Positions 26,774 through 54,363 of a stretch of DNA of 64,000 nucleotides are shown here, piece after piece. The stretch is from the NCBI GenBank assembly GCA_964106645.2, contig OZ067052.1; one strand, 5' to 3'. The position numbers and the translations under genes are program-made. Position 1 is the first letter of the stretch, and the number at the start of each line of letters is the position of its first letter. Under the pieces are notes generated by a model. The model saw only the letters and a list, made by a program, of their open reading frames with translations, had not been told where the DNA came from and made no database searches. Source of the stretch: Podarcis pityusensis (Eukaryota).

Positions 26774-26899
26774 TACCTCCCAAAATTGTTGAGATCTCTT
26801 CGGACATCTCCATCAATGAAGGTGGCAATGTCAGTCTCACCTGCATAGCTATGGGCAGGCCGGACCCTACAATCACTTGGAGACATATCTCACCCAAAG
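26774..26899 (+). CDS. NTM: Internal coding exon of neurotrimin (IgLON family), N-terminal half of Ig domain 2
   Basis: Polypyrimidine tract plus tgcAG acceptor ending at 26773, candidate branch point CTTGAC at 26740-26745, and donor AAG|GTAAGA at 26900. The exon is 126 bp, phase 1-1, and translates (V)[41 protein letters not shown]. This closely matches recalled NTM/CEPU-1 Ig2 ([38 protein letters not shown]) and fits better than OPCML, LSAMP or NEGR1. No other NTM exon was recognised in the window. Confidence 0.95.
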
Positions 26900-34480: not shown

Positions 34481-34714
34481 CTGTCTTTTTCGCTCTATAA
34501 GATGCACCAGACCATAAGACGCATCTAGTTCTTGGAGGAGGAAAACAAGAAAAAAAATATTCTGAATCTCAGAAGCCAGAACAGCAAGAGGGATCCCTCT
34601 TGCTGTTCTGGCTTCTGGGATAGCTGTGCAGCCTGCATTCGCTCCATAAGACGCACACACATTTCCCCTTACTTTTTAGGAGGGAAAAGTGAGTCATAGA
34701 GCAAAAAAATATGG
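34481..34714. mobile_element. Tc1/mariner-type MITE
   Basis: TIRs ctgtctttttcgctctata and tagagcaaaaaaatatgg, TA flanks, repeated cataagacgca motifs, and an internal hairpin cagaagccagaacagcaagag/ctcttgctgttctggcttctg. Confidence 0.8.
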
Positions 34715-35875: not shown

Positions 35876-36448
35876 TGGCTGTTAACTTTATTAGTATACC
35901 TCTCCTATCTTTGCTACATGTTGCGAGGAAAAAAATGCTAGGGCCATGAAGCTCCTCCCTCCTCTTCTCACACGGAATTCCACTGCTCCCACCCAGCCCA
36001 CCACATCTGAGCAAGAACCTTCAAATTTCAATTTAGGTGAAACTTTGGGGCTGCTATACATTTGCTATCCCTCCCACATTCATTCTTCATTGTGTGTGTC
36101 TGTTTTCAATTTCATCCCACCTAGCTTCTGTGGTGCCCTTTTAATCTAGGTGACATGGTGTTCCTGTCTCTTTGAGGAGATCACCATAAATGTTGTCTCA
36201 TTCCCCATTCTGTGGTGCGTGTGGCCCATATGCCAAGATGTTCCATTGCATTCTGGGTGGGAAGGATGGGCCTTGGCCCCATGGAAGCCAGCCAATGACA
36301 GAGAGACTTGGCTCCATTGCTCAGCAGATGAGAACTTCACCTTCCTTTGAAGAGCCAATCCACCATCTTGGAATCCAGCTAAATTAACTGAAGCATTTCA
36401 ACGGGCTCTAATCCTGTCGGCAGCTGAACTGTCTCCTTGTTTACTGTT

Positions 36449-36604
36449 NNNNNNNNNNNNNNNNNNNNNNNNNNNNNNNNNNNNNNNNNNNNNNNNNNNN
36501 NNNNNNNNNNNNNNNNNNNNNNNNNNNNNNNNNNNNNNNNNNNNNNNNNNNNNNNNNNNNNNNNNNNNNNNNNNNNNNNNNNNNNNNNNNNNNNNNNNNN
36601 NNNN
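36449..36604. other. Assembly gap
   Basis: 156 consecutive N. Confidence 1.
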
Positions 36605-39600
36605 GCATTGTTTAATGAGGTAAACTATATTATAGCCCGCATTAATTTGACTGCAGTGCACTCCACTAAATCATGCTTTAACCTGTAAATCTGCCATGGT
36701 TTCTGATGTGCACTTAATCAGGGAGGGCAAGCAAGAACTCTTTGTGGTGTTGGTGGGGGAATGGAAAGGTCATTCCGACCCTAGGTCTTCTGTCTCCATG
36801 GCAGCAGCCATGGCGAGAGGCTCACAGGCAATGTCAAGGGGGTTCTTTGCACCGAGCGCCACACTCCTTGTGACCCAGGAGCGTTCCTTCTCAAGAACTT
36901 TGAGTTTGTTGCATTGCAATTGAACAGAAAGTGAGTTTAGGGAAAAAATACATTAGAAGGAATGAGGCAGGGGATAAAGGGAGCAAGATGCAAAGTGAAA
37001 TCTTGTATCAAACCTGTTTAAAATACTCCTTTTTTAAAAAAAAATAAAATGCTTTTTATTGCAAAGGAAAACATCCCATGCTATTTTTCATTATCGTTAC
37101 ATATAACAATACAAATGTTTGAAAGATGCAGAAACGAACAACGGCTTGCTGTTTGATGTCCCAACTTAACAAAGAAAATGATGCAGAGCAGGTAAATGGT
37201 TGTTGCTGAGAGATAACAATGCTTCGAATAATAAGATCGTGATTCCACAGACGGACAATGGAGGGGTCAATAATAATTCCTGGACTGCAATCAGATCCAC
37301 ATAAAATCAAACTTTGCAAGTCATAAGTTTGTCTTCTGACATAAGTCACAAATGGTTACCATGTAGCTGCATAGACCGTCGGTTTGGCTTTACCCCTGGA
37401 AACTCATAAAGAATTAGTGAGTTTTCCAGATATTGCAATAAATAAGACCTTTTTAAACCAGGTATCAAAGGGGAAAGCCAAGATAGCCCTCCATTCCTGG
37501 GCAGTGTTTAGTCAAGCAGTGACAAGCAAATAAATTATAATGGGTTTACACATATTTTTATAGGCGAGAAAAAGAATAACACATGGGGAATATATATATA
37601 ACAACTGAAACTCGGTTGGACTGACACAGAGCCAGTTTATCATTATAATGAGTGATGGAGTCCAACCATCTCTCAAGGGCCATATGTCCCCCATCCTGTC
37701 ATAACAGGACTTAAGTTATTTTTGCCCTCAAGTTTGTCTATAAAAATGAAATACCATATTTTCTTCATCTTGCTGACCCTTCTTCTGGTGTGTCGTTTCT
37801 AGACTTGTACACAATATCTTGAAGTTCTTCTCCAAAAAGTACTTCACGGGGCTAAGTTAGTTCTAGGTGCAAAACTACAAGGTGTGATTGCATTAATTTC
37901 AGCAAAGAGTTGCTTCCTAAATCTGTTGAAGACATTACATTGCCACCATATGTGAAAGTATATTCCCATGCCTCTACAACTTTTCCAGTGTTTCAGAGCA
38001 ACATTATTGTAAATGCTGTTCTTGAAAGCATCGCTGGGGGGGGGGGAATGCACCTCTAATTTCAGTGGCATTAACTCTCGCTTTTGGATCCCAAGAGATT
38101 CAGTAATGTAGCGTTAACAGCTGAGAATGACCATCTTTGGGATGAAGCAAGGGTGATTGTTCTAATAATAGGGCTGTATATTTTGACTCAATTGTAGGGT
38201 GCCCCAGTGCAGCCACTAAGTCAGAGTTACAACCTCCAAGAGCTGTCTCCTCTTTTGTGCACCTGTTCCTTCCAATACCAAATATGTTTGTGCATATGCA
38301 TGCCCATTATCTGTGCCCAGAAACTACCAACTGCAAGTAGAAGGGAAAGATGTGGGAGCAATGATGTTGTAAGACAACACGGCTCAGCAGACTGGCTGGA
38401 GAAGCTCAATGGACCTGATTCCAATGTGTCTGTGGACCATTTACTGGGTGGGGAGCACAGGGAGGACTTATAAGGACAAGTTTATGAGCACAATCCTTTC
38501 TGAGTTTTCTGACTGGTGTTTTAAAAACTCAGCAGTTAGACAGAGTATTTAAATAGCTACGATGCCTAGATAATTCAGGCCACACAGCCTTTGAAGCAAG
38601 GGCTGTCTCTTTCATTTCCACGGTATGCCTTTGGGTGCAACAAGGAATTACTGTGACTTGGATTGCCTTGAGCTGTCGTGTTTTGGGGATAATTGCACGC
38701 CCCTACAAAGAGCCACAATTGAAGGAGGCATGTGCCTGGTGCCTTGAGCAAAAAGGAATGAAAAATTCCAACTCCCAAGCTTCTACCTATCTGCTCTGCT
38801 CAGGGACCCTTTGCTTGGAAACTGTGCTTGAGATGTTAATTTAGTCTCCAAAGTGGAATCTGCTGGAGTTTGCTGGGCTATGTTTTCTGGCATGAAGAAA
38901 GTTGTGTGTGTGCATGTGTGTTCATGAGTGTGTTTTGAGATGAGAGGGAGGGAGGAATGGGAGTAGCCTGGTCTTTCCATATTGTCATATTCTTTTTTAG
39001 CAATAAAGATGGCTGCAGGACAATAACCTTATTCCTTCTACAAAGACAGAAACCGCTGTACCTCTGACTGGCTTGCCCGCCTCTGAGGCAGCAAAGGAAG
39101 AGCCAGGGACAGAGTATCTGAGATTCAGGAGATCTCCACACAAATTAAAACCTTTTATCGGGCTCTAATAGATGTGCAAACTAATTATATTTTGGCCAAA
39201 CTTTGCCGGCGACTCCCCTGAGGTATTATTATAAAATTCCGAGCTGGAGAAGCGAAGCGCGTCCTCATTCTGTCAATGCTAGGATGCTTCAGCTGCAGAA
39301 AACTGTGCTCTGGCTCATTTTTGCATTCTGTGATGTGTGTATGTTTGTGTGTGAGTGAGTGCGCATTTCATAAGCTGTGGTGGTTGCATTTTGAAAGGCA
39401 TAGCTAACTTAAAAGGGACTGGAGTTTAATTGTAGTTGCATTTAATGGCTTGTCATTGGCTTGCTGTATGGATCATTTCAATCCAGCAATTTGCTGTGGT
39501 CTTAAGAACCTTAGATCGGGGGGTGGGATTCCCCCCACCCGGAGGATGCATTCTCTGAAGGGCAATCTGTATGGGGCTGCAGGCTGGTGGGTGGTGTTGC

Positions 39601-39710
39601 AGCCTGCTGTGAGTGGGGGCAGAAATAAAAATAGGAAGGATCATCTGCCTTTCCCTTCCTCTCTCTTTCTCTTTCTCTTTCTCTTTCTAACTCTGCTACC
39701 CCTCAGATCT

Positions 39711-39854
39711 GGGATAGCTAACTCAGTAGCAAATGAGACTCTTAATCTCAGGGTCACAGGTTTGAACCCCACATTGGGCAATAGATTCCTGCATTGTATG
39801 TGATTGGACTAGATGACCCTTGGGGTACCTTCCAATTCTACAGCTCTGTGACTC
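39711..39854 (+). mobile_element. tRNA-Lys(CTT)-derived SINE with CR1-like tail (Squam2-like)
   Basis: The head ...gagactcttaatctcagggtc...ggtttgaaccccacattgggc resembles tRNA-Lys. The tail ttggactagatgaccctt...ccttccaattctac is a CR1 3' end. Confidence 0.75.
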
Positions 39855-40281
39855 CTGTCTGTCCCTGACATCCCCTTATCTCTCTCTCACCCTCCTCTAT
39901 CTCCTTGACACCCCTTTCTCGCTCTCTCTCTCATTCGCTCTCTCTCATCCTTTCAGGGACAGCTCTATGTATTGCCAAAGGGGCGGTGGTACTTTAGAAT
40001 TCAGGTAGGCAGTCTATAACACCAAATCTGAAATTTAGCAGATTTTATTAAAGAACATAGGCCAATAATGCCATTCTCCTTTGTGTTGCCCGGAAAACTC
40101 CATCCATATGGCAACAGGTACAGAATCATGGCAACCAAGATGCAACCCTCACGCCAGCATTGGGTCAGCCTAATTACCTTATATGTTTTTTGTTATGTTG
40201 ATATAACTAACTAAGGCATTAACCACCTCTTTTGGTATTTGGGGTTCCCACCAGTGTAAAAGGCTACTTCATACTCTAGGG

Positions 40282-40419
40282 CAGCGGTTCTCAACCTGTG
40301 GGTCCCCAGATGTTGTTGGACTACAACTCCCATCATCCCTGAGCTCTGGCCTTGCTAGCCAGGGCTGATGGGAGTTGTAGTTCAACAACATCTGGGGACC
40401 CACAGGTTGAGAAAGGCTG
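40282..40419. mobile_element. 138-bp palindromic hAT MITE, copy 1
   Basis: About 60-bp near-perfect inverted arms. Perfect 8-bp TSD ctctaggg at 40274-40281 and 40420-40427. Confidence 0.92.
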
Positions 40420-40733
40420 CTCTAGGGGGTTACATCAGCAGCATCTTTGTTTGGACGACATGCTAGTTTCTCACCAAAGTGAAAGACTTCCTTTCTTCCT
40501 TTCCTCCCCTCCCCCACTTTTAATTTGTATACTATCTTTCTATATATACTATACAGAAGGCAATTTACAAGCAGGAAAATATATATACACACATTATAGA
40601 AATTTGATCCAATACAAAGACTCATAGAAACATAACTATAAAATAAACAATAAGGCAATATTCAATAACCCATTAGAATACAATAAAAAAATCCTTCCAG
40701 TAGCACCTTTAAGACCAACTAAGTTAGTTCTTG

Positions 40734-40771
40734 GTATGAGCTTTCGTGTGCAAGCACACTTCTTCAGATAC
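40734..40771 (-). ncRNA. Minimal type I hammerhead ribozyme (PLE pseudo-LTR, left arm)
   Basis: Exact reverse complement of 41713-41750. Confidence 0.75.
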
Positions 40772-40951
40772 ACTGAAACAGAAGTTGCCAGATCCTTCTA
40801 TATAGTGAGAAGGTGGGGAGGGGTATTACTCAGAAGGGTGGTGGGGATGGGAGATTGGCAGATAGCTGGGATGAGCCTGCTGACGACTCTTAACGACTGT
40901 AATGGGTCTTACAGGAAAAGGCAAGGGGTGAGAAGGTGAGAAATGGCTTAG

Positions 40952-41452
40952 TCATGTATAATGGGATAAGAATCCAATGTCTTTGTTCAAACCAGGTTTC
41001 TCCATGGTTTTAAGTTTGGTAATGAGTTGTAATTCAGCAGCTTCTCTTTCCAGTCTATTTCTGAAATTCCTTTGTAGTAAAACAGCTACTTTGAGATCTT
41101 GTATAGAATGTCCTGGGAGATTAAAGTGTTCTCCTACTGGTTTCTCTGTCTTGTGATTCTTGATGTCAGATTTGTGTCCGTTTATTCTTTGGCGTAAGGT
41201 TTGGCCTGTTTGTCCAATATAGAGAGCTGAAGGACACTGTTGGCATTTGATGCCATACACAATGTTAGATGATGAGCAATTGAATAGTCCCGAGATGGTA
41301 TGTGTGATGTTGTTGGGGCCAGTAATGGTGTTGTCCGGGTGTATGTGGCAGCAAAGTTGGCATCTGGGTTTATTGCAGGCTCTGGTGCCAGTGTCCGTGT
41401 TAAGTCTGGTTGTAGTATTATTGTGGGTTAGGAGTTGTTTAAGATTGGGTGG
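40952..41452 (-). pseudogene. 5'-truncated PLE ORF: Cys-rich linker plus GIY-YIG endonuclease (RT absent)
   Basis: Stop-free frame PPNLKQLL...CNKPRCQLCCHIH...FNCSSSNIVYGIKCQQCPSALYIGQTGQTLRQRINGHK...VGEHF...REAAELQLI...GLN. The GIY-YIG motif, Arg, Glu, Asn and the PLE-type CxxC/His residues are present. Confidence 0.9.
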
Positions 41453-41679
41453 TGTAACTCATTACCAAACTTAAAACCATGGAGAAACCTGGTTTGAACA
41501 AAGACATTGGATTCTTATCCCATTATACATGACTAAGCCATTTATCACCTTCTCACCCCTTGCCTTTTCCTGTAAGACCCATTACAGTCGTTAAGAGTCG
41601 TCAACAGGCTCATCCCAGCTATCTGCCAATCTCCCATCCCCACCACCCTTCTGAGTAATACCCCTCCCCACCTTCTCAC

Positions 41680-41712
41680 TATATAGAAGGATCTGGCAAC
41701 TTCTGTTTCAGT
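41680..41712 (+). promoter_or_regulatory. Candidate TATA plus initiator core promoter in the PLE pseudo-LTR (mirror copy 40772-40804 on the minus strand)
   Basis: TATATAG starts at 41680. The A of TCAGT is at 41710, 30 nt downstream, which is the canonical TATA-Inr spacing. Confidence 0.45.
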
Positions 41713-41750
41713 GTATCTGAAGAAGTGTGCTTGCACACGAAAGCTCATAC
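41713..41750 (+). ncRNA. Minimal type I hammerhead ribozyme (PLE pseudo-LTR, right arm)
   Basis: GTAT-CTGAAGA-A-GTGTG(CTTG)CACAC-GAAA-GCTC-ATAC. CUGANGA and GAAA cores, 4-bp stem I, 5-bp stem II and a palindromic AGCU stem III. Predicted cleavage after C41746. Confidence 0.75.
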
Positions 41751-42391
41751 CAAGAACTAACTTAGTTGGTCTTAAAGGTGCTACTGGAAGGATTTTTTTA
41801 TTTTGATTATGGCAGACCAACACGGCTACCTATCTGCCATTAGAATACAGTAACACACAATAAAATTAAATGCCAACAAATAATAATAATTAGACAGAAA
41901 TTCAGTACCAGCCATTACAATAAACAATTGTAAGGCTAAGTAATACTTGGCAGAAAGTTAACATGGATAGCCTTTAAGACTGGCCTGTACTTCCTAGAGC
42001 AGGTGTCAGCTGAAGCCTTCTCTTAAAGATAAAGATTCCCACACAGAGCCATCTCAGCCTAAGTAAGTGTGAGGAACTACCAGCTTATGGAATAAACAGA
42101 GTCAGCCACATATAGGCTCTCAGGTCCACAGGATTTCTTGGGCACATGAGGAGCAATTGCTGGATACTACCCCATTCTGCTCAAGGCAACCGCTCTTGGG
42201 AAGTAGCCGTGATGTACCGAATCGCTTGCTTCTTATATATATATATTTATATCCCTCCCTTCCCCCCTGAAGGAGACCATGGTGGCAAACACATTCATGA
42301 TGTTTTCTAATGCGTTTGAAAACACTTAACACATTTTGGAAACAGTTACAGTTTCCAGTTCAATGAAAAACTTTTTAAAAGCAGCTGCAGT

Positions 42392-42607
42392 TTGTTTCAC
42401 CTGTATCCCACCTTTCCTTCAAGTAGCTCAAGCTGATGTGCATGGTTCTCTCCTCCCCATTTTATCCTCAGGACAACCCTGTGAGGCAGGTTAGGCTGAG
42501 AGGCAGTGACTGGTCCGAGGTTGCGCTTCATGGCCGAGTTGGGGATTTGAACTCCGGTCTCCCAGGTCCTATTCTGACACTCTAACCACTACCCCACTTT
42601 GGCTCTC
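42392..42607 (-). mobile_element. Squam3-like SINE
   Basis: Full collinear match to 18776-19004, ending actctaaccactaccccactttggctc. Confidence 0.8.
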
Positions 42608-42889
42608 AGGCTATTTGCCCATCTGCCCTACCATTGTCTACTATGATTGACTCCATCTCTCTAAGGTTTCAGGCCCAAAGAGGCCTCCCCTCATCATCTG
42701 CCACTAGATCTTTCCAACTTTTTGGCTTTCTTTTCCTCTTTTACAACTGAGGTACACTAGGGCTGTCATCCCACATCCCATAGCAGAGAGCATTGTACAT
42801 TAATGCTCCCTGCTATATGTATTCATAGCACACTGGATAGAGGCAATTTGGTATTAGGGTTTTCCATTAAGTGGTCCAGTAGACAGATA

Positions 42890-43111
42890 ATGATTGATTG
42901 CATTTATATTTCACCTATTTCTCCAGGGAGCTCAAGGTGGTGTACATGGTTGTCTCCCTCATTTAATCCCTACAACAACCCTGTGAGGTAGTTTAGGCTG
43001 AGAGGCAGTGATTGAGCCACAGTCACCCAGTGACTTTTATGAACAAGTAGGGATTTGAATCCTGGTTTCCCAGGTCCTAGTCTAACACTCTAACTACTAC
43101 ACCATGCTAGC
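42890..43111 (-). mobile_element. Squam3-like SINE
   Basis: Full collinear match to the same family. Confidence 0.8.
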
Positions 43112-43704
43112 TGGTGGTATACAGCCAAAGAGCACCCGAACTATGCCCACCTTTCTGGTGGCAATGCAGATCATCCTCTAGTGAGGGCTGGGGGAGCCTG
43201 TTCCTTCAAGGTGTTGTTAAGATCCAGTGCTCATCAGCTGTGGCCACTGGCCAGGCTGGCTAACATAGATGAGAGCTGGAATCCAACAGCAGCAGCAAGG
43301 CAACAGTTTTCAATATTGTGAGTTATCCTCAGTGGGAGTTGTAGTTTGGCATAGGGAGCCACCTCTGACATATATACATATATGTACCAGACATGGTGTC
43401 AGTGACTTTTTCCACTGCTGGCCTGATACCATATTCTCCTTTGGAACACCCCCCCCCCCAGCAATAGGGCTCATACATTTATGCCAGAGTAGTGCTTGAA
43501 ATATCTATTTGATAAACTAATAAGAGGAAATACTGGTAAAAGGTTGGGTGAAAATTCAATTATGTACTAATTTTGAAAGACGGGGTAGATAGAGGATGGG
43601 ATCAGCTGTGCAAATACATCCATATATCAAATGCATTCAGAATTTCTGTTTCGGCCCTTTCTTTATTCCTTGAATGGGTGGACTTCACAGATAGAAACAT
43701 AATT

Positions 43705-43705
<1 letters not shown>

Positions 43706-43746
<41 letters not shown>
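43706..43746. repeat. (AG)n microsatellite
   Basis: About 20 perfect units. Other microsatellites: (CA)n 17134-17162, (GAT)n 27027-27050, (TATC/TACC)n 44646-44720 and (TATAT)n 47228-47260. Confidence 0.95.
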
Positions 43747-43749
<3 letters not shown>

Positions 43750-44775
43750 ACTCAATGGTGCTAGAATGAAATCCTATTTAATTCAGGGTTAAACATTCAA
43801 GGACAAAATGCCATTTATGTCAGTGGTAACCAGAGGTGCTGCCCTCCACATATTGTGGGGCCCCAACTCCCACCTGCCTCGGTCAACATGGCCAATGGTC
43901 AGGGATGGTGAGTTGTGAGGGCACTATGTTGGATACCCCTGATTTGTGCAGTTGATTTTCCTCCTAAATACATTTATTTTAGCAGGAAGGCTAAAGAGAA
44001 TATTCAACAGGGATGCTGGGAAGGGGGGCAGACAGCTATATCCAATTATTAAATTGCCGGTCTGAGCCCAAGATCTATATCCAATTATTGGTCTTTTGAT
44101 TAAGCATTCAGTTCTAATTTTACAGTTTTCTCCTTTCCATCTCTATCTGTCTCTACTTGTTTGTGGGTCGGGAAAAGCATATACATTTTAAAAAATAATA
44201 AATAGTTTTGTTGCATACCTAGGCTCAAGCTCGCAGGTGTGAGAGTTCTGAGTTCCTAGAGAGAAGCATCGGTGAGCAAGCGTACCCCTTACCAGAGGGC
44301 CTTGCGTTTCATTTTCCTCCTTGCCATCTGGCATCCCGTCTCATGGGTGCCCGCGATTGGCTTCCCAGATACTGGCATCCTTTCCAATTGTCACTAATTA
44401 CATTGCAGGTCGGTAAATCATTGCGGGCGAGGGAGTGACAGAAGAAATGGGAAGGACCCCTGCCATGCTGTGGAGGGACAGCCTGGTGCTTGGAACAATT
44501 TGTCAACTCCTCGGGCTGCAGGCTGTTTTGAGCTCGCTGACTGTCACACTGTCACTGTTTGGCGCACCAACCCTGGGTGCAGGCATGCAAAGCAGATGTG
44601 GCAAATTCACAGCACTAGCCACTAAGGCAACGGGGGGCTATCGATATCTATCTATCATCTATCATCTACCTACCTACCTATCAGCTATCTATCAATATTG
44701 ATATCGATATATATCTATATCAAGAGGTCCTAGGCAAATTCTAGGTTGCTGCCTGTTCATGATCACACTGTACAT

Positions 44776-45214
44776 CAGGGGTCAGCAAACTTTGTCAGCA
44801 AGGGGCCAGTCCACTGTCCCTCAGACTTTGTGGGGGGCCAGAAAAAAATGGTGCAAGACAACACAAGCCCCCGTGGCTGCTTACCTGTGTCTTGCGAGTG
44901 GCAGGGGTTGGTGGCGGCGGTGGCAGGACGATGAGTGGTGTGCAAAAGGGTTCTGGAGAGGGGCTGCGTAAAATAGTAGCCGCTCAAGCACTGCTGCTGC
45001 TGGCACCAACAAAGCCCAGCCCCCTTCCTCCTCTAGGCAGGGCAGGGAGAAGGCAGGAGGAGGGAGGGAGGAGGCGCTGGCGCCGCCGTGTGAGGGAGAG
45101 GGAGGGAGAAGGAAAGAACACACGTGCTGGTGATTCATGCGGAGATTCCCGGACCATCCGTGGGCCAGATCCAGAAGGCAATTGGGCCTGCAGGCCTTAG
45201 TTTGCCTACCCATA
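44776..45214. mobile_element. hAT (Charlie/Buster-like) MITE with GC-rich core
   Basis: TIRs caggggtcagcaaact and agtttgcctacccata. Perfect 8-bp TSD ctgtacat at 44768-44775 and 45215-45222. Confidence 0.9.
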
Positions 45215-48200
45215 CTGTACATTATTAGGATCTGGCTGTTAGCCACTTCCTGTGGTATATGACAGATTTTTGAATATATTAAGTTATTGATTTTAGAGAA
45301 AGTTTCTAGTCCTGTTGCGGAGGGGGCGCAACAATATTGAAAACCATATCTTCTATTGCCTCTGTGACCAGAAAATAGGGAAGTTTTCAGGATAAGATTT
45401 CTAAAGGTCAAAGGAGACAAATCACCCCTTTTCTCTGCTTTCCTTTTTCCCTAGCTTCCAACACAAAAACATTAGTTTTATTATATGGAGAGCTGCCATG
45501 TTCCTCTCCAATCTACACTATTGTTTTCTATTCAGACTTAATTAGACAGCTTAATTTTCTAATTCCCGGGCTAAGGAATTTCAGACATATAATCTGTAAC
45601 CTGTAATATTATTATCATTATCATTTATTACCCACCCTAACTTCAAGGTCCCTGGGCAGGTTACAAGACAATATTTTAACCATTTTAAAACAACTTACAA
45701 TCACAAAAATAAGGTGAGTCCTATAAATAAAAAAAAAGTTTTCTGGTTTTGCTTGTTCCCTCCTCTCCCTCGCTCCCCTACCCTTCCCTTTTCATGCAAA
45801 TCTTCCCAGGGAACTCTGGGAACTGTAGCTCTGGGTGGGGAACAGGGGTCTCCTGATGAGTCTCAGCACCTTTAATGGACTTCAGCCCCCAGAATTCTTT
45901 GGGAGAAGCCATGGGTATTAAAAGTGGTTATTCATGGTGTTTTAAAAGAATGGTGTGAATGTGGGCTTTGACTGAAATCACACCCTGCAACTGTCCCGAT
46001 AAAACTGGGACACTGTGTGAGCTCACTGCACCCTGAAACACACAAGAGGACAGCCCTGAAAGATTTTGATTTTGCACAAGAGCACAGCGCCTGGAAACAC
46101 AAGTTTGGGAGCCATGCTCTCTCATGGGTCATGTGACTTGTGCAGGAGTGAAGCCCCAGAAGACAGGCATCCCGTTTTTCCACTACAACATGATGGAGGG
46201 GATGTGATATGCTAGCATGTCAAACTAAATTTTATTTGCATCAGTGGCGTGACAACAATGAATGCCAATGAACAACATCCCTACTCCCCCATGTTGTCCC
46301 CCCCAAAAAACCCAGCAAGTAATAACTGCATGGTGGTATACAACACCAAATTTCTTCACCATGATTTTCTGGGTTAAGCGGTTTGCAAACAGATTATTTC
46401 TGGAACCAATTAATGCAGAAATGAATGCTAAACTTCCAACAGATTCTTGCTAGCTTTCCAGAAGTAGCTATTAATTTGTGTAAAATCTCAATCAGAATGC
46501 AAAAATTAACAGTTAGAGAAACATCAGGGAAAGGGAATAAATTGCTGTGTGATTGCAGCCCAAGTTAATGAAAGGTAGAACCAACTAATTCTAGTTTTGT
46601 CCTTATCCCACCTCCCTGTTGAATTCTAGAAAGGCAAAACTAAGGCTAAGCAGAAGGAAGCTGGGAGTCAGGGCCACTGGCAGGGGTCTCTTCAGAATTT
46701 CAGGCAGGGGTCTCTTCCAATCTTAGCTGAAGATTTTGGGTGTTGAACCTGAGACCTTCTCCATGCAGACCAGATGCTCTCTAACTGAGCTGCAAGGGCC
46801 TCCTGGCTTTCCTCCAAAACACTCCAGAAATAGTGGCAATGAATCCTATTACCTCGTTGTGCAATTCAGCAGGCAAACCACCTCTCCAATTCACTGTTGC
46901 TTCTGCCAAACAGAGTTTAACTCTAACAAAGCAAATAAATGTGATTGAGTAGCTCAAACAATGAAATGGTGTTTGCATAATGTGTGTACTTGCAACAGGT
47001 TATTCAGAAATTGACTTTCCATTTGGTGTTTGACCTGCAGGTGAAATAAATATTCTGGTTTGAACTAAGGGAGCCTGTTTTGTCTGCATTGTAGTCCTTA
47101 GTGCATCCAATCAAGATCCTTCCAGTGTTTCTGCCGCTTAAAGTTTGGCAATCTGTGCCAGAGGAGTCCCCATTAGGCAGTGACCAATTATTCTGAGATC
47201 ACCTATCCCCCACTAATAATTATTATAATATTATATTATATTATATTATATTATATTATTATACGCTTTGTAGCCAAGACTGTTAAACATCAAACAAACT
47301 TGCTTGTCAAAAAAAGAGAAGACAATAGGGTTTTTGGGAGAAGGTTCTGTCTTGCGCCTTCTCTCCCCATGCTCAGCTTGCCCAAGCCATAACACCCTTA
47401 AGCTTTTTCGTTGCACAGATTGTTGGCTAATGGGGCGGAGCCAGCTAAGGATGCCTTCCATTAATGGAGCAGAATATAAACAGAATAAAGCCTTCATTTC
47501 TCGGGCTGCAGTTTCATTATTAATATACTTTCCAGTTCACAGGTTGTTCATTTGCTTCCATGTTTTCTCAGCTGGTGTAATCTTGCAGCGCTGAGTGAGA
47601 ACAGTCATAAAATTTCCATTTCCAGTTGAGTGTGCATCCAATTCACCATGAAATGTTCTCGCTGCCGTGAATATTAAGTGTGCTGGGAGAGGTTTCTGCA
47701 GGATTAACCTGGGAGGAATCCCAGCTACGTTGGAAATCTGGGTGGGGTGCAGAGTGCCTTGGTGGGAAGAGTGGGTGGCAGGAGTGAGGAGCTGATAAAG
47801 CCATAAAGGGAAGCACAATAGAAAGGCCTGCAATGCACCCAGGTGGAAAGTGAGGCATGGTGGGAAGGAGAGGAAGAAAGTAGGTTTGGCAGAGTAAAAA
47901 AGAGTAAAAAGTAAAAGAGTAAAGGAAGTTCAGTGGCCGAGTAAAAGCATGCATGGCATAGAAAAAGGGGACAGAGAGACATTTTCCTGCTCTCTCACAA
48001 CTTTGCAACTCACAGAGACCCAATGAAGCTGAAGGTTCGAAGATTCCAACTCTAAATCTACAATTCTGGGATTCTATGAAATTGTCCCAAAATTAACATG
48101 AATCAGGAAGCAGGGAGGGAAACTATGTCATGTGATGCATCTACTTGATAAAGGGCTCACTAGACCAATGAACAGCTCCTAGGTTCTATAGATTCCATTG

Positions 48201-48899: not shown

Positions 48900-49107
48900 A
48901 TTGATTTAATTGCATTCATATCCCATCTTTTTCTCTGAGGAGCCCTTCCTCATTTTAATCACCACAACAACTCTGTGAGGTAGGTTAGACTGAGAGGCAG
49001 TGACTGGCCTTAGGTCACCCATTGAGCTTCATGGCCAAATGAGGATTTGAACCCTGGTCTCCCAGGTCCTACCTAGTCCAACATTCTAACCACTACACCA
49101 CATTGCT
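48900..49107 (-). mobile_element. Squam3-like SINE
   Basis: Collinear with the other family copies. Confidence 0.75.
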
Positions 49108-53431: not shown

Positions 53432-54363
53432 TGTATGTTGTTGCTGTTGTCAGACAAGTGGAAGTCAGAAACCCTTGTAGATCAACTGCAGATGTGCTGG
53501 TATGTTACAGTAGTAAGCCATAGGAAAAGCCTTCATGTGACCCTGGAGGACCACCACTCATCAAAGCAGACAGCACTGAGCAAGATGGACAAATGGTCCA
53601 ATTCTGTGGAAGGGAGTTTCTACTCTCTCCTCTCCCACCCTTTCCATGCCAGCATGAGCTCAGGGCAACATTGCTTTGGAGGAGAGCTATAACACAAGCT
53701 CTTCCAAAGAGCTTGGCACTTCTAGCATGATCGGGGCAAGAAAGAAGGGAGGACATTCTGTGGCAGTTTTCATAGCATGACCTAAGAGGGGGGCGGCTTA
53801 GTGGCAGAGCTATTATGTGCCCTTCCTGCCAGAAAAATAAATCCCCCAAATTCTCTGAACAAGAGAAAAAAGGTGAAGCAAGAAAAACAAATTTGCATGC
53901 TTAAAAAGCAGTCATTTTTACTGCTTGGACACTGTAGATTAGAATCTGCAGGTAGAAGAGCAGGTGAAAAATAGCAGGTGAACATTTGACCACTGTGAAT
54001 GCTTTTTACCCTTTGGTTCATCGCCCTGCTTAGGTCCTGAACCAAAGCCCCTCGAGGACAATGTGAGTCTTTCTATTGACTTCAGTGGGCTTAGGATCAG
54101 GACCTTAATGCATAGCTGCTCTTGCACAACTTCTGCCTGTCCCTCTCACATGATAAAGCCCAAGTTGTCTTGTGCCATTCTCAAGGCCTGTGAGCTGGGT
54201 CAAGACCACTTTAAGGCCTTGTGAATTTGCCCCATCATAAGCTAGGGTATTTGCCTAGATTTTGAAGGCTGGGGAGAGGGGGTCCACCTGGTTCCTTCTT
54301 CTTGGATACAAACATACAAGGAGGGTGGGAATCACTTTTAAAATTGAGGAATTAGAGCTAGAC

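Follow-up and report, generated by a model that had tools for sequence, protein, structure and literature searches.

Amniote genomes carry the intronic hammerhead ribozymes HH9 and HH10, which are single-copy, deeply conserved, and active as monomers. The hammerhead described here resembles them in lying in sense orientation in a vertebrate intron but differs in being minimal, high-copy, and part of an insertion that is missing from other haplotypes. Minimal type I hammerheads of Penelope-like elements (PLEs) were described by Cervera and de la Pena (2014; PMC4209133). These motifs lie in pseudo-LTRs, with reptile examples, and occur as opposite-strand pairs ~100–700 bp apart and as many dispersed solo copies; they have a 4-bp helix I, an additional nucleotide that separates position 9 from 10.1, a G10.1–C11.1 pair, a palindrome at 15.2–16.2, and no loop 3, and the authors report no activity for monomers and low activity for dimers. 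A related system is PAc, the Poseidon element of Anolis carolinensis (Frangieh et al.; PMC11167929), a reptile PLE with RT and GIY-YIG domains and a pseudo-LTR hammerhead; in that study, no cleavage occurred without the element protein, uncut RNA was the main template, and no RNA-seq ends were found at the cut site. Insertions of endonuclease-positive PLEs (PMC3846280; PMC8557442; PMC2377424) typically include a head-to-head inverted, 5′-truncated copy, a target duplication, and a one-sided tail of 30–40 nt.

We analyzed a 64,000-nt stretch of contig OZ067052.1 of Podarcis pityusensis (GCA_964106645.2), hereafter the window. A sequence-only reading of this DNA had proposed twin minimal hammerheads, one of which was suggested to cut neurotrimin pre-mRNA. 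Both motifs are real: identical 38-nt minimal type I hammerheads with intact cores lie at 41713–41750 (+) and, as the exact mirror, at 40734–40771 (−), and a generic type I descriptor finds just these two sites in the window. The second copy is simply that of the inverted arm of the same insertion. Our modeling and comparisons indicate that the two are very probably the pseudo-LTR ribozyme motifs of a single young, outward-facing Penelope-like insertion, whose sense copy would be an inert passenger, predicted to pair with its earlier-made mirror.

The motif consists of a 4-bp stem I (GUAU/AUAC), the core CUGAAGA, one extra A (41724) before stem II, a 5-bp stem II (GUGUG/CACAC) closing on a CUUG loop, GAA, and a palindromic AGCU (41742–41745) as the helix III remnant, with C17 at 41746. 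It thus has the defining features of PLE hammerheads, namely a CUGANGA core and GAA with a U-H cut site, a helix I of 4–5 bp, G10.1–C11.1, an extra base after A9, a palindromic helix III remnant, and a location in a PLE pseudo-LTR. Like the motifs of PMC4209133, it also lacks loop 3 and occurs in opposite-strand pairs and many dispersed solo copies, and its copies are very uniform, as in the case of the element that is invading Drosophila virilis; here, helix II has 5 bp, compared to 7–8 bp in Schistosoma, and the present pair is 941 bp apart compared to about 100–700 bp. The proposal that this is a PLE pseudo-LTR hammerhead is borne out by the element context and family, and its description as a weak monomer built for dimers agrees with the published relatives (PMC4209133). 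A scan with hammerhead covariance models had been named as a check; Rfam matched no hammerhead family, either among the 10 matches at E up to 10 in 36000–47000 or at the gathering score across the window. The 38-mer had a folding z-score of −0.31, i.e., it was not more stable than shuffled sequences, and none of five short stretches that were folded gave a significant z-score. Such stability is expected, since the motif is without helix III, and the hammerhead assignment rests on core letters, family conservation, and context rather than folding stability. Because the 38-mer has 3,892 exact copies in the genome (1,977 + 1,915), compared to 0 + 0 for a reversed control, it is not a chance occurrence. 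The motif is real, of an already published kind, and at an ordinary locus.

Table 1. Features of the insertion and its host intron, in window coordinates.
Feature	Position	Strand	Basis
Exon coding for the first half of neurotrimin Ig domain 2; borders the host intron upstream	26774..26899	+	protein match, splice signals
13-bp target-site duplication, left side; its final A also belongs to the element end	40670..40682	+	sequence; empty-site contigs
Left arm: 5′-truncated copy, ORF end and pseudo-LTR, no tail	40682..41452	−	alignments
Minimal type I hammerhead, antisense to neurotrimin	40734..40771	−	descriptor
Remnant of the ORF with Cys linker and GIY-YIG endonuclease, uninterrupted up to the stop codon	40952..41452	−	Pfam PF01541
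Right arm: pseudo-LTR copy with tail	41456..41836	+	complementarity, alignments
TATA-like box of pseudo-LTR, putative function	41680..41687	+	sequence
Inr-like word, putative 5′ end of element transcript	41708..41713	+	5′ edges of short copies
Minimal type I hammerhead in neurotrimin sense orientation; cleavage predicted after C41746	41713..41750	+	sequence, descriptor, family conservation
34-nt tail; holds start codon (41809–41811) of the element's 910-aa ORF	41803..41836	+	alignments
Right target-site duplication, 13 bp	41837..41849	+	sequence; empty-site contigs

Both hammerheads are part of a single Penelope-like retrotransposon stub of 1.15 kb, in whose inverted pseudo-LTR arms they lie (Table 1). 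The complementary stretches (41456–41802 versus 40682–41028) form 347-bp arms that are 427 bp apart and 99% complementary, with two differences in 347 bp. The left arm continues into a GIY-YIG remnant on the − strand (E 2.4e-5, 25.0 bits against a Pfam cut-off of 22.6) and is 96.7% identical over 768 bp to the full-length copy L081 and about 99% identical to other copies; the junction bases 41453–41455 are of uncertain origin. A 13-bp target duplication flanks the whole insertion, the 34-nt tail is present on the right arm only, and the two element 3′ ends, each of which represents a different one of the two 3′ ends seen in the family, adjoin the target duplication. This arrangement is already published and textbook for endonuclease-positive PLEs (PMC3846280; PMC8557442; PMC2377424), including the one-sided tail, which has the same 34-nt length in D. 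virilis, and the 20 bp from the TATA-like box to the Inr-like word, which is the spacing in Adineta Pen2a (PMC3846280). Unlike in those insertions, both arms are truncated here, so no full ORF is present at the locus. To generate this structure, the element enzyme would nick both target strands 13 bp apart, element RNA would be copied at each of these nicks from start sites that differ by 34 nt, and the resulting pair of 5′-truncated copies would be joined. Priming from nicks on both strands fits the observation that both 3′ ends abut the target duplication, one per family 3′ end; cleavage and extension on both strands, and two start sites, have been reported in vitro for the anole element (PMC11167929).

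We compared the site with contigs of four runs (X1–X4), whose species match rests on flank identity. A 752-nt contig of X1 (record 1) joins 40399–40669 to 41837–42300 with 0 differences over 735 flank bases, and record 24 of X4 joins 40669 to 41837 with 0 and 5 flank differences and two gaps; X2 and X3 each contain a contig that starts at 41837 after other sequence and is not listed as a bridge. Since contigs from two of the four runs bridge the empty site, one of them without a flank difference, the insertion is recent and probably polymorphic within the species, which makes it a likely presence/absence marker. A host-domesticated ribozyme would be fixed and conserved at the orthologous site, whereas this site is empty in two of four runs.

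Longer copies of the element encode RT and GIY-YIG domains (in copy L032, RVT_1 E 1.2e-12 and GIY-YIG E 1.6e-4). A complete unit spans 3,010 bp and, in L081, holds a 910-aa ORF whose start codon is the equivalent of 41809; full-length elements carry two sense hammerheads 3,010 nt apart, the first of which lies in the 5′ leader. A single ORF with RT and, at its C terminus, a GIY-YIG domain, pseudo-LTRs in direct or inverted orientation, a 30–40 nt tail, and a target duplication identify the family as an endonuclease-positive PLE. The GIY-YIG domain is preceded by a C-x4-C-x2-C linker, and PMC8557442 assigns CX2-5CxxC linkers between RT and endonuclease to Neptune and Nematis; by this linker definition, the sequence points to a Neptune (or Nematis) type element and distinguishes it from PAc. 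Two full-length copies, L083 (1808–4661) and L081, have open 910-aa frames, and the family is therefore probably still active. L083 has a stem II mismatch in both pseudo-LTRs. No intron in the element leader was found in the joint tables of the contig runs. Among the first 100 copies listed, a minus-then-plus pair of motifs was present in 23 of 72 clusters; with thousands of identical copies, head-to-head pairs included, any gene struck by such a stub gains a sense copy.

Among 100 listed of 2,744 copies, chosen by their flanks alone and counted by eye, the core was intact in 99: the motif was identical in 71, 26 made up a sister subfamily whose sole differences are in loop II and at position 17, two altered the last stem II pair, and one was without G12. 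The CUUG loop itself is variable, being CAUG in 26 of the 100 listed copies. Of nine further copies selected for having the core pattern, six are older and agree with the motif at 36 of 38 positions but with only 145–167 of the 200 upstream bases, and three are more distant and agree with it at 35 of 38, with upstream sequence that aligns poorly. In a set of 13 sequences from several families, few of them independent and all picked by the core pattern, stem II was 95% paired, with two of its five pairs changed on both sides, and stem I was 71% paired, giving modest support for covariation among families. These comparisons modestly favor a structure selected in the element lineage; they have no bearing on the host.

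The 5′ ends of short copies suggest that transcription of the element begins at the ribozyme and that the uncut RNA serves for reverse transcription. Copies without the base at 41690 number 2,113; by eye, 86 of the 100 listed start at 41710–41717, four at 41709, and 10 at 41691–41708, with peaks of 25 each at 41711 and 41713. Genome-wide, the break falls exactly before 41713, where stem I begins, in 667 copies, compared to six in which it falls before 41705, which is 8 nt upstream. The base preceding 41713 was G in 59 of 100 listed copies, A in 19, and C in 22 (expected G share 0.31, p 4e-9, with rows not all independent). For LINE-1 and SVA, an untemplated G has been interpreted as the copy of a cap (PMC4859970); microhomology contributes in the present element, because some of the G bases belong to the target duplication (L126, L134). 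The 41711 start class is mostly preceded by T. The TATA-like box lies ~30 nt before the start, with the Inr-like word 20 bp after the box. The 3′ ends of 30 copies starting at 41713 correspond to the two tail ends, with 14 at 41799–41809 and 13 at 41831–41843. Contigs joining 40771 to 41713 were present in all four runs, and contigs joining 40773 to 41711 in three of four. Depth rose ~4- to 12-fold between neighboring bins at 41706 in four contig runs presumed to be RNA and labelled as other organisms, but also 3- to 11-fold in DNA runs, so the step is no sign of expression. A splice acceptor at 41711/41712 was considered as a source of the 5′ pile-up and is not favored, as the copies share no upstream exon beyond two letters.

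We regard transcription of the element from the first bases of hammerhead stem I as likely; the pile-up of copy ends predicts the start site within 3 nt, and uncut RNA as template. The real job of the motif would then be in the element's own RNA, where it would make up the initial 38 nt of the 5′ leader and lie 59 nt ahead of the start codon; cutting would occur only in a dimer or with the element protein, and uncut RNA would be the usual template. The resemblance to PAc, with two 3′ ends one tail-length apart and, as proposed here, uncut RNA as the main template, does not extend to the layout: here the ORF begins within the tail, 59 nt past the motif, which places the cut site in the 5′ leader, whereas the PAc ORF starts at stem II (PMC11167929). 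The layout in D. virilis is different again, with a start site 46 bp ahead of an intron that ends at helix I (PMC4209133; PMC2377424). We found no paper in the literature searched that maps a PLE start site to the first base of the hammerhead, and the words "transcription start" do not occur in the available text of PMC11167929. A fuller reading, which we offer tentatively, combines a start at stem I with a cap-proximal ribozyme leader and cleavage that strips a 34-nt capped piece from the element mRNA; solo minimal hammerheads would then be complete copies of a 90- or 125-nt leader rather than random truncations. It is possible, though doubtful, that cleavage acts as a self-limiting step or stage switch, with the capped uncut RNA being translated and copied.

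In a further alternative, the hammerhead-shaped sequence would be kept as a promoter or protein-binding element and would never cleave, even in the element's own RNA. Starts within 41740–41753 were found in 144 copies that pass the filter, and 17 of 95 usable listed rows start at the cut site, 41747, the highest single position, with 16 at 41752 (five indel rows of 100 were dropped; rows were read by eye, with 30 confirmed by script, and the 17 represent ~12 independent loci). We rejected these starts as evidence of cleavage; 41747 and 41752 are both A/T runs after C, and microhomology explains the 41747 starts as well as cleavage does. Some cleavage of element RNA may nevertheless occur, given the 17 starts. 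The absence of a clear cut-site excess among genomic copies is what a never-cleaving motif would leave, as are its overlap with the proposed start site and its unremarkable folding z-score; moreover, the anole element can do without cleavage in vitro (PMC11167929), and PLE clades without a hammerhead thrive (PMC8557442). However, in the core-selected set the core letters and G10.1–C11.1 are invariant and stem II shows two-sided changes (two of five pairs, 95% of cells paired), the subfamily changes hit tolerated positions, and relatives cleave as dimers or with protein (PMC4209133; PMC11167929), which together make a motif that never cleaves fairly unlikely. The young, uniform family, with its intact full-length copies, is well suited to testing the role of PLE hammerheads.

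The claim that the + copy is in sense orientation in a neurotrimin intron was confirmed by an exon on the + strand. This 126-nt exon is flanked by an AG acceptor and a GT donor and has Neurotrimin as its best match (E 6e-21, 75.2 bits; NEGR1 62.9, OPCML 61.4); in window-equivalent coordinates, the exon before it is at about −18,000 and the one after it at about +95,518. The insertion is 13.8 kb past the donor of a 68.6-kb intron. Intronic hammerheads of PLE origin are common, judging from Xenopus retrozymes, of which ~42–44% of copies overlap introns, with mild depletion (preprint 10.64898/2026.07.22.740005). The same neurotrimin intron contains a second, older head-to-head stub of this element group (L037, ~85,213–85,425 window-equivalent), in which the − hammerhead copy is complete and the + copy is truncated and without G12; further stubs of the group are near +133,200 and −52,500.

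The proposed relevance of the motif to neurotrimin RNA is not supported, as the motif is predicted to be buried in a 347-bp duplex and the insertion is absent from other sequenced haplotypes and has thousands of identical counterparts. The antisense arm is transcribed ~1 kb before the sense motif in the host pre-mRNA. In + strand folding, the motif paired with its mirror with a predicted probability of 0.98 for RNA ending at 41750 and 0.9995 for the whole insertion, and forcing stems I and II cost 59 and 69 kcal/mol, respectively; at all five simulated 3′ ends between 41500 and 41750, 19–20 of the last 20 bases were paired with the left arm. These values are for equilibrium folding of the RNA by itself; proteins or ADAR editing could still open the duplex. 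By this prediction, the motif would be unable to fold as a hammerhead in the host transcript, and copies on opposite strands cannot form a cis-dimer. On these models, neurotrimin pre-mRNA is therefore unlikely to be cut: cleavage would require a partner, and the sequence exactly complementary to the motif appears in the transcript 1 kb ahead of it. The specific proposal that the sense copy cuts the intron RNA after C41746, in a trans-dimer or helped by protein, and so lowers or alters expression, is highly improbable in our judgment. Its orientation, intact core, and thousands of identical potential partners would allow it, the bare 38-mer needs just 1.5 kcal/mol to form stems I and II, and protein-assisted cleavage is known for the anole element (PMC11167929). 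Nevertheless, besides sequestration by the mirror arm, the right arm by itself disfavors the hammerhead fold by 4.7 kcal/mol, the two-molecule minimum is a stem II swap (−25.7 kcal/mol) rather than the active dimer (−11.1 kcal/mol for the one nested form evaluated), activity is low even for dimers (PMC4209133), and some haplotypes have no insertion to cut.

The insertion could instead affect the host transcript independently of ribozyme cleavage, through the 347-bp dsRNA hairpin (by ADAR editing, dsRNA sensing, or splicing delay) or through the promoter of the right arm. The near-complete complementarity of the arms, with a predicted hairpin energy near −800 kcal/mol, and TATA-like and Inr-like words that point downstream are consistent with such effects, and a 3′ pseudo-LTR can drive downstream transcription (PMC2377424); however, the nearest exon is far away in a long intron and such stubs are common, and we consider this quite unlikely. 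If the motif were a host regulator, a neural adhesion gene would be tuned by a mobile ribozyme. The evidence argues against this, and the motif is likely an inert passenger.

Directly left of the insertion, 40276–40425 is a fold-back repeat with 66-bp arms, sub-threshold Rfam microRNA matches, and very high depth in all four runs; it is probably a miniature inverted-repeat element. An Rfam match to mir-1677 at 54031–54106 (91.8 bits, above the gathering score of 84) may be a repeat-derived hairpin. The window also contains a near-perfect palindrome with 28-bp arms and no spacer (34566–34621) and three copies of a SINE-like repeat with 60–85% identity (42460–42596, 42962–43104, and 48954–49096).

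Elsewhere in the genome, a different repeat (L067, L070; 1501–1533), representing 10 of 100 matches listed, has a hammerhead-like core with no palindrome and a shifted stem I, which may be due to chance; it gave no match to the PLE protein, and the frame that follows it is presumably, by motif, an RTE-type endonuclease. At L120–L124 (G000:C2:30803579-30803848), at least seven units of 35–36 nt start at or beside the predicted cut site and could reflect the repeated copying of either a cleaved 3′ product or a short stretch. L084 (641–860; G000:C1:6051937-6052122) has three head-to-tail 74-nt units, each with a full hammerhead; in this retrozyme-like tandem a cis-dimer could form, making it a better test substrate than the neurotrimin copy.
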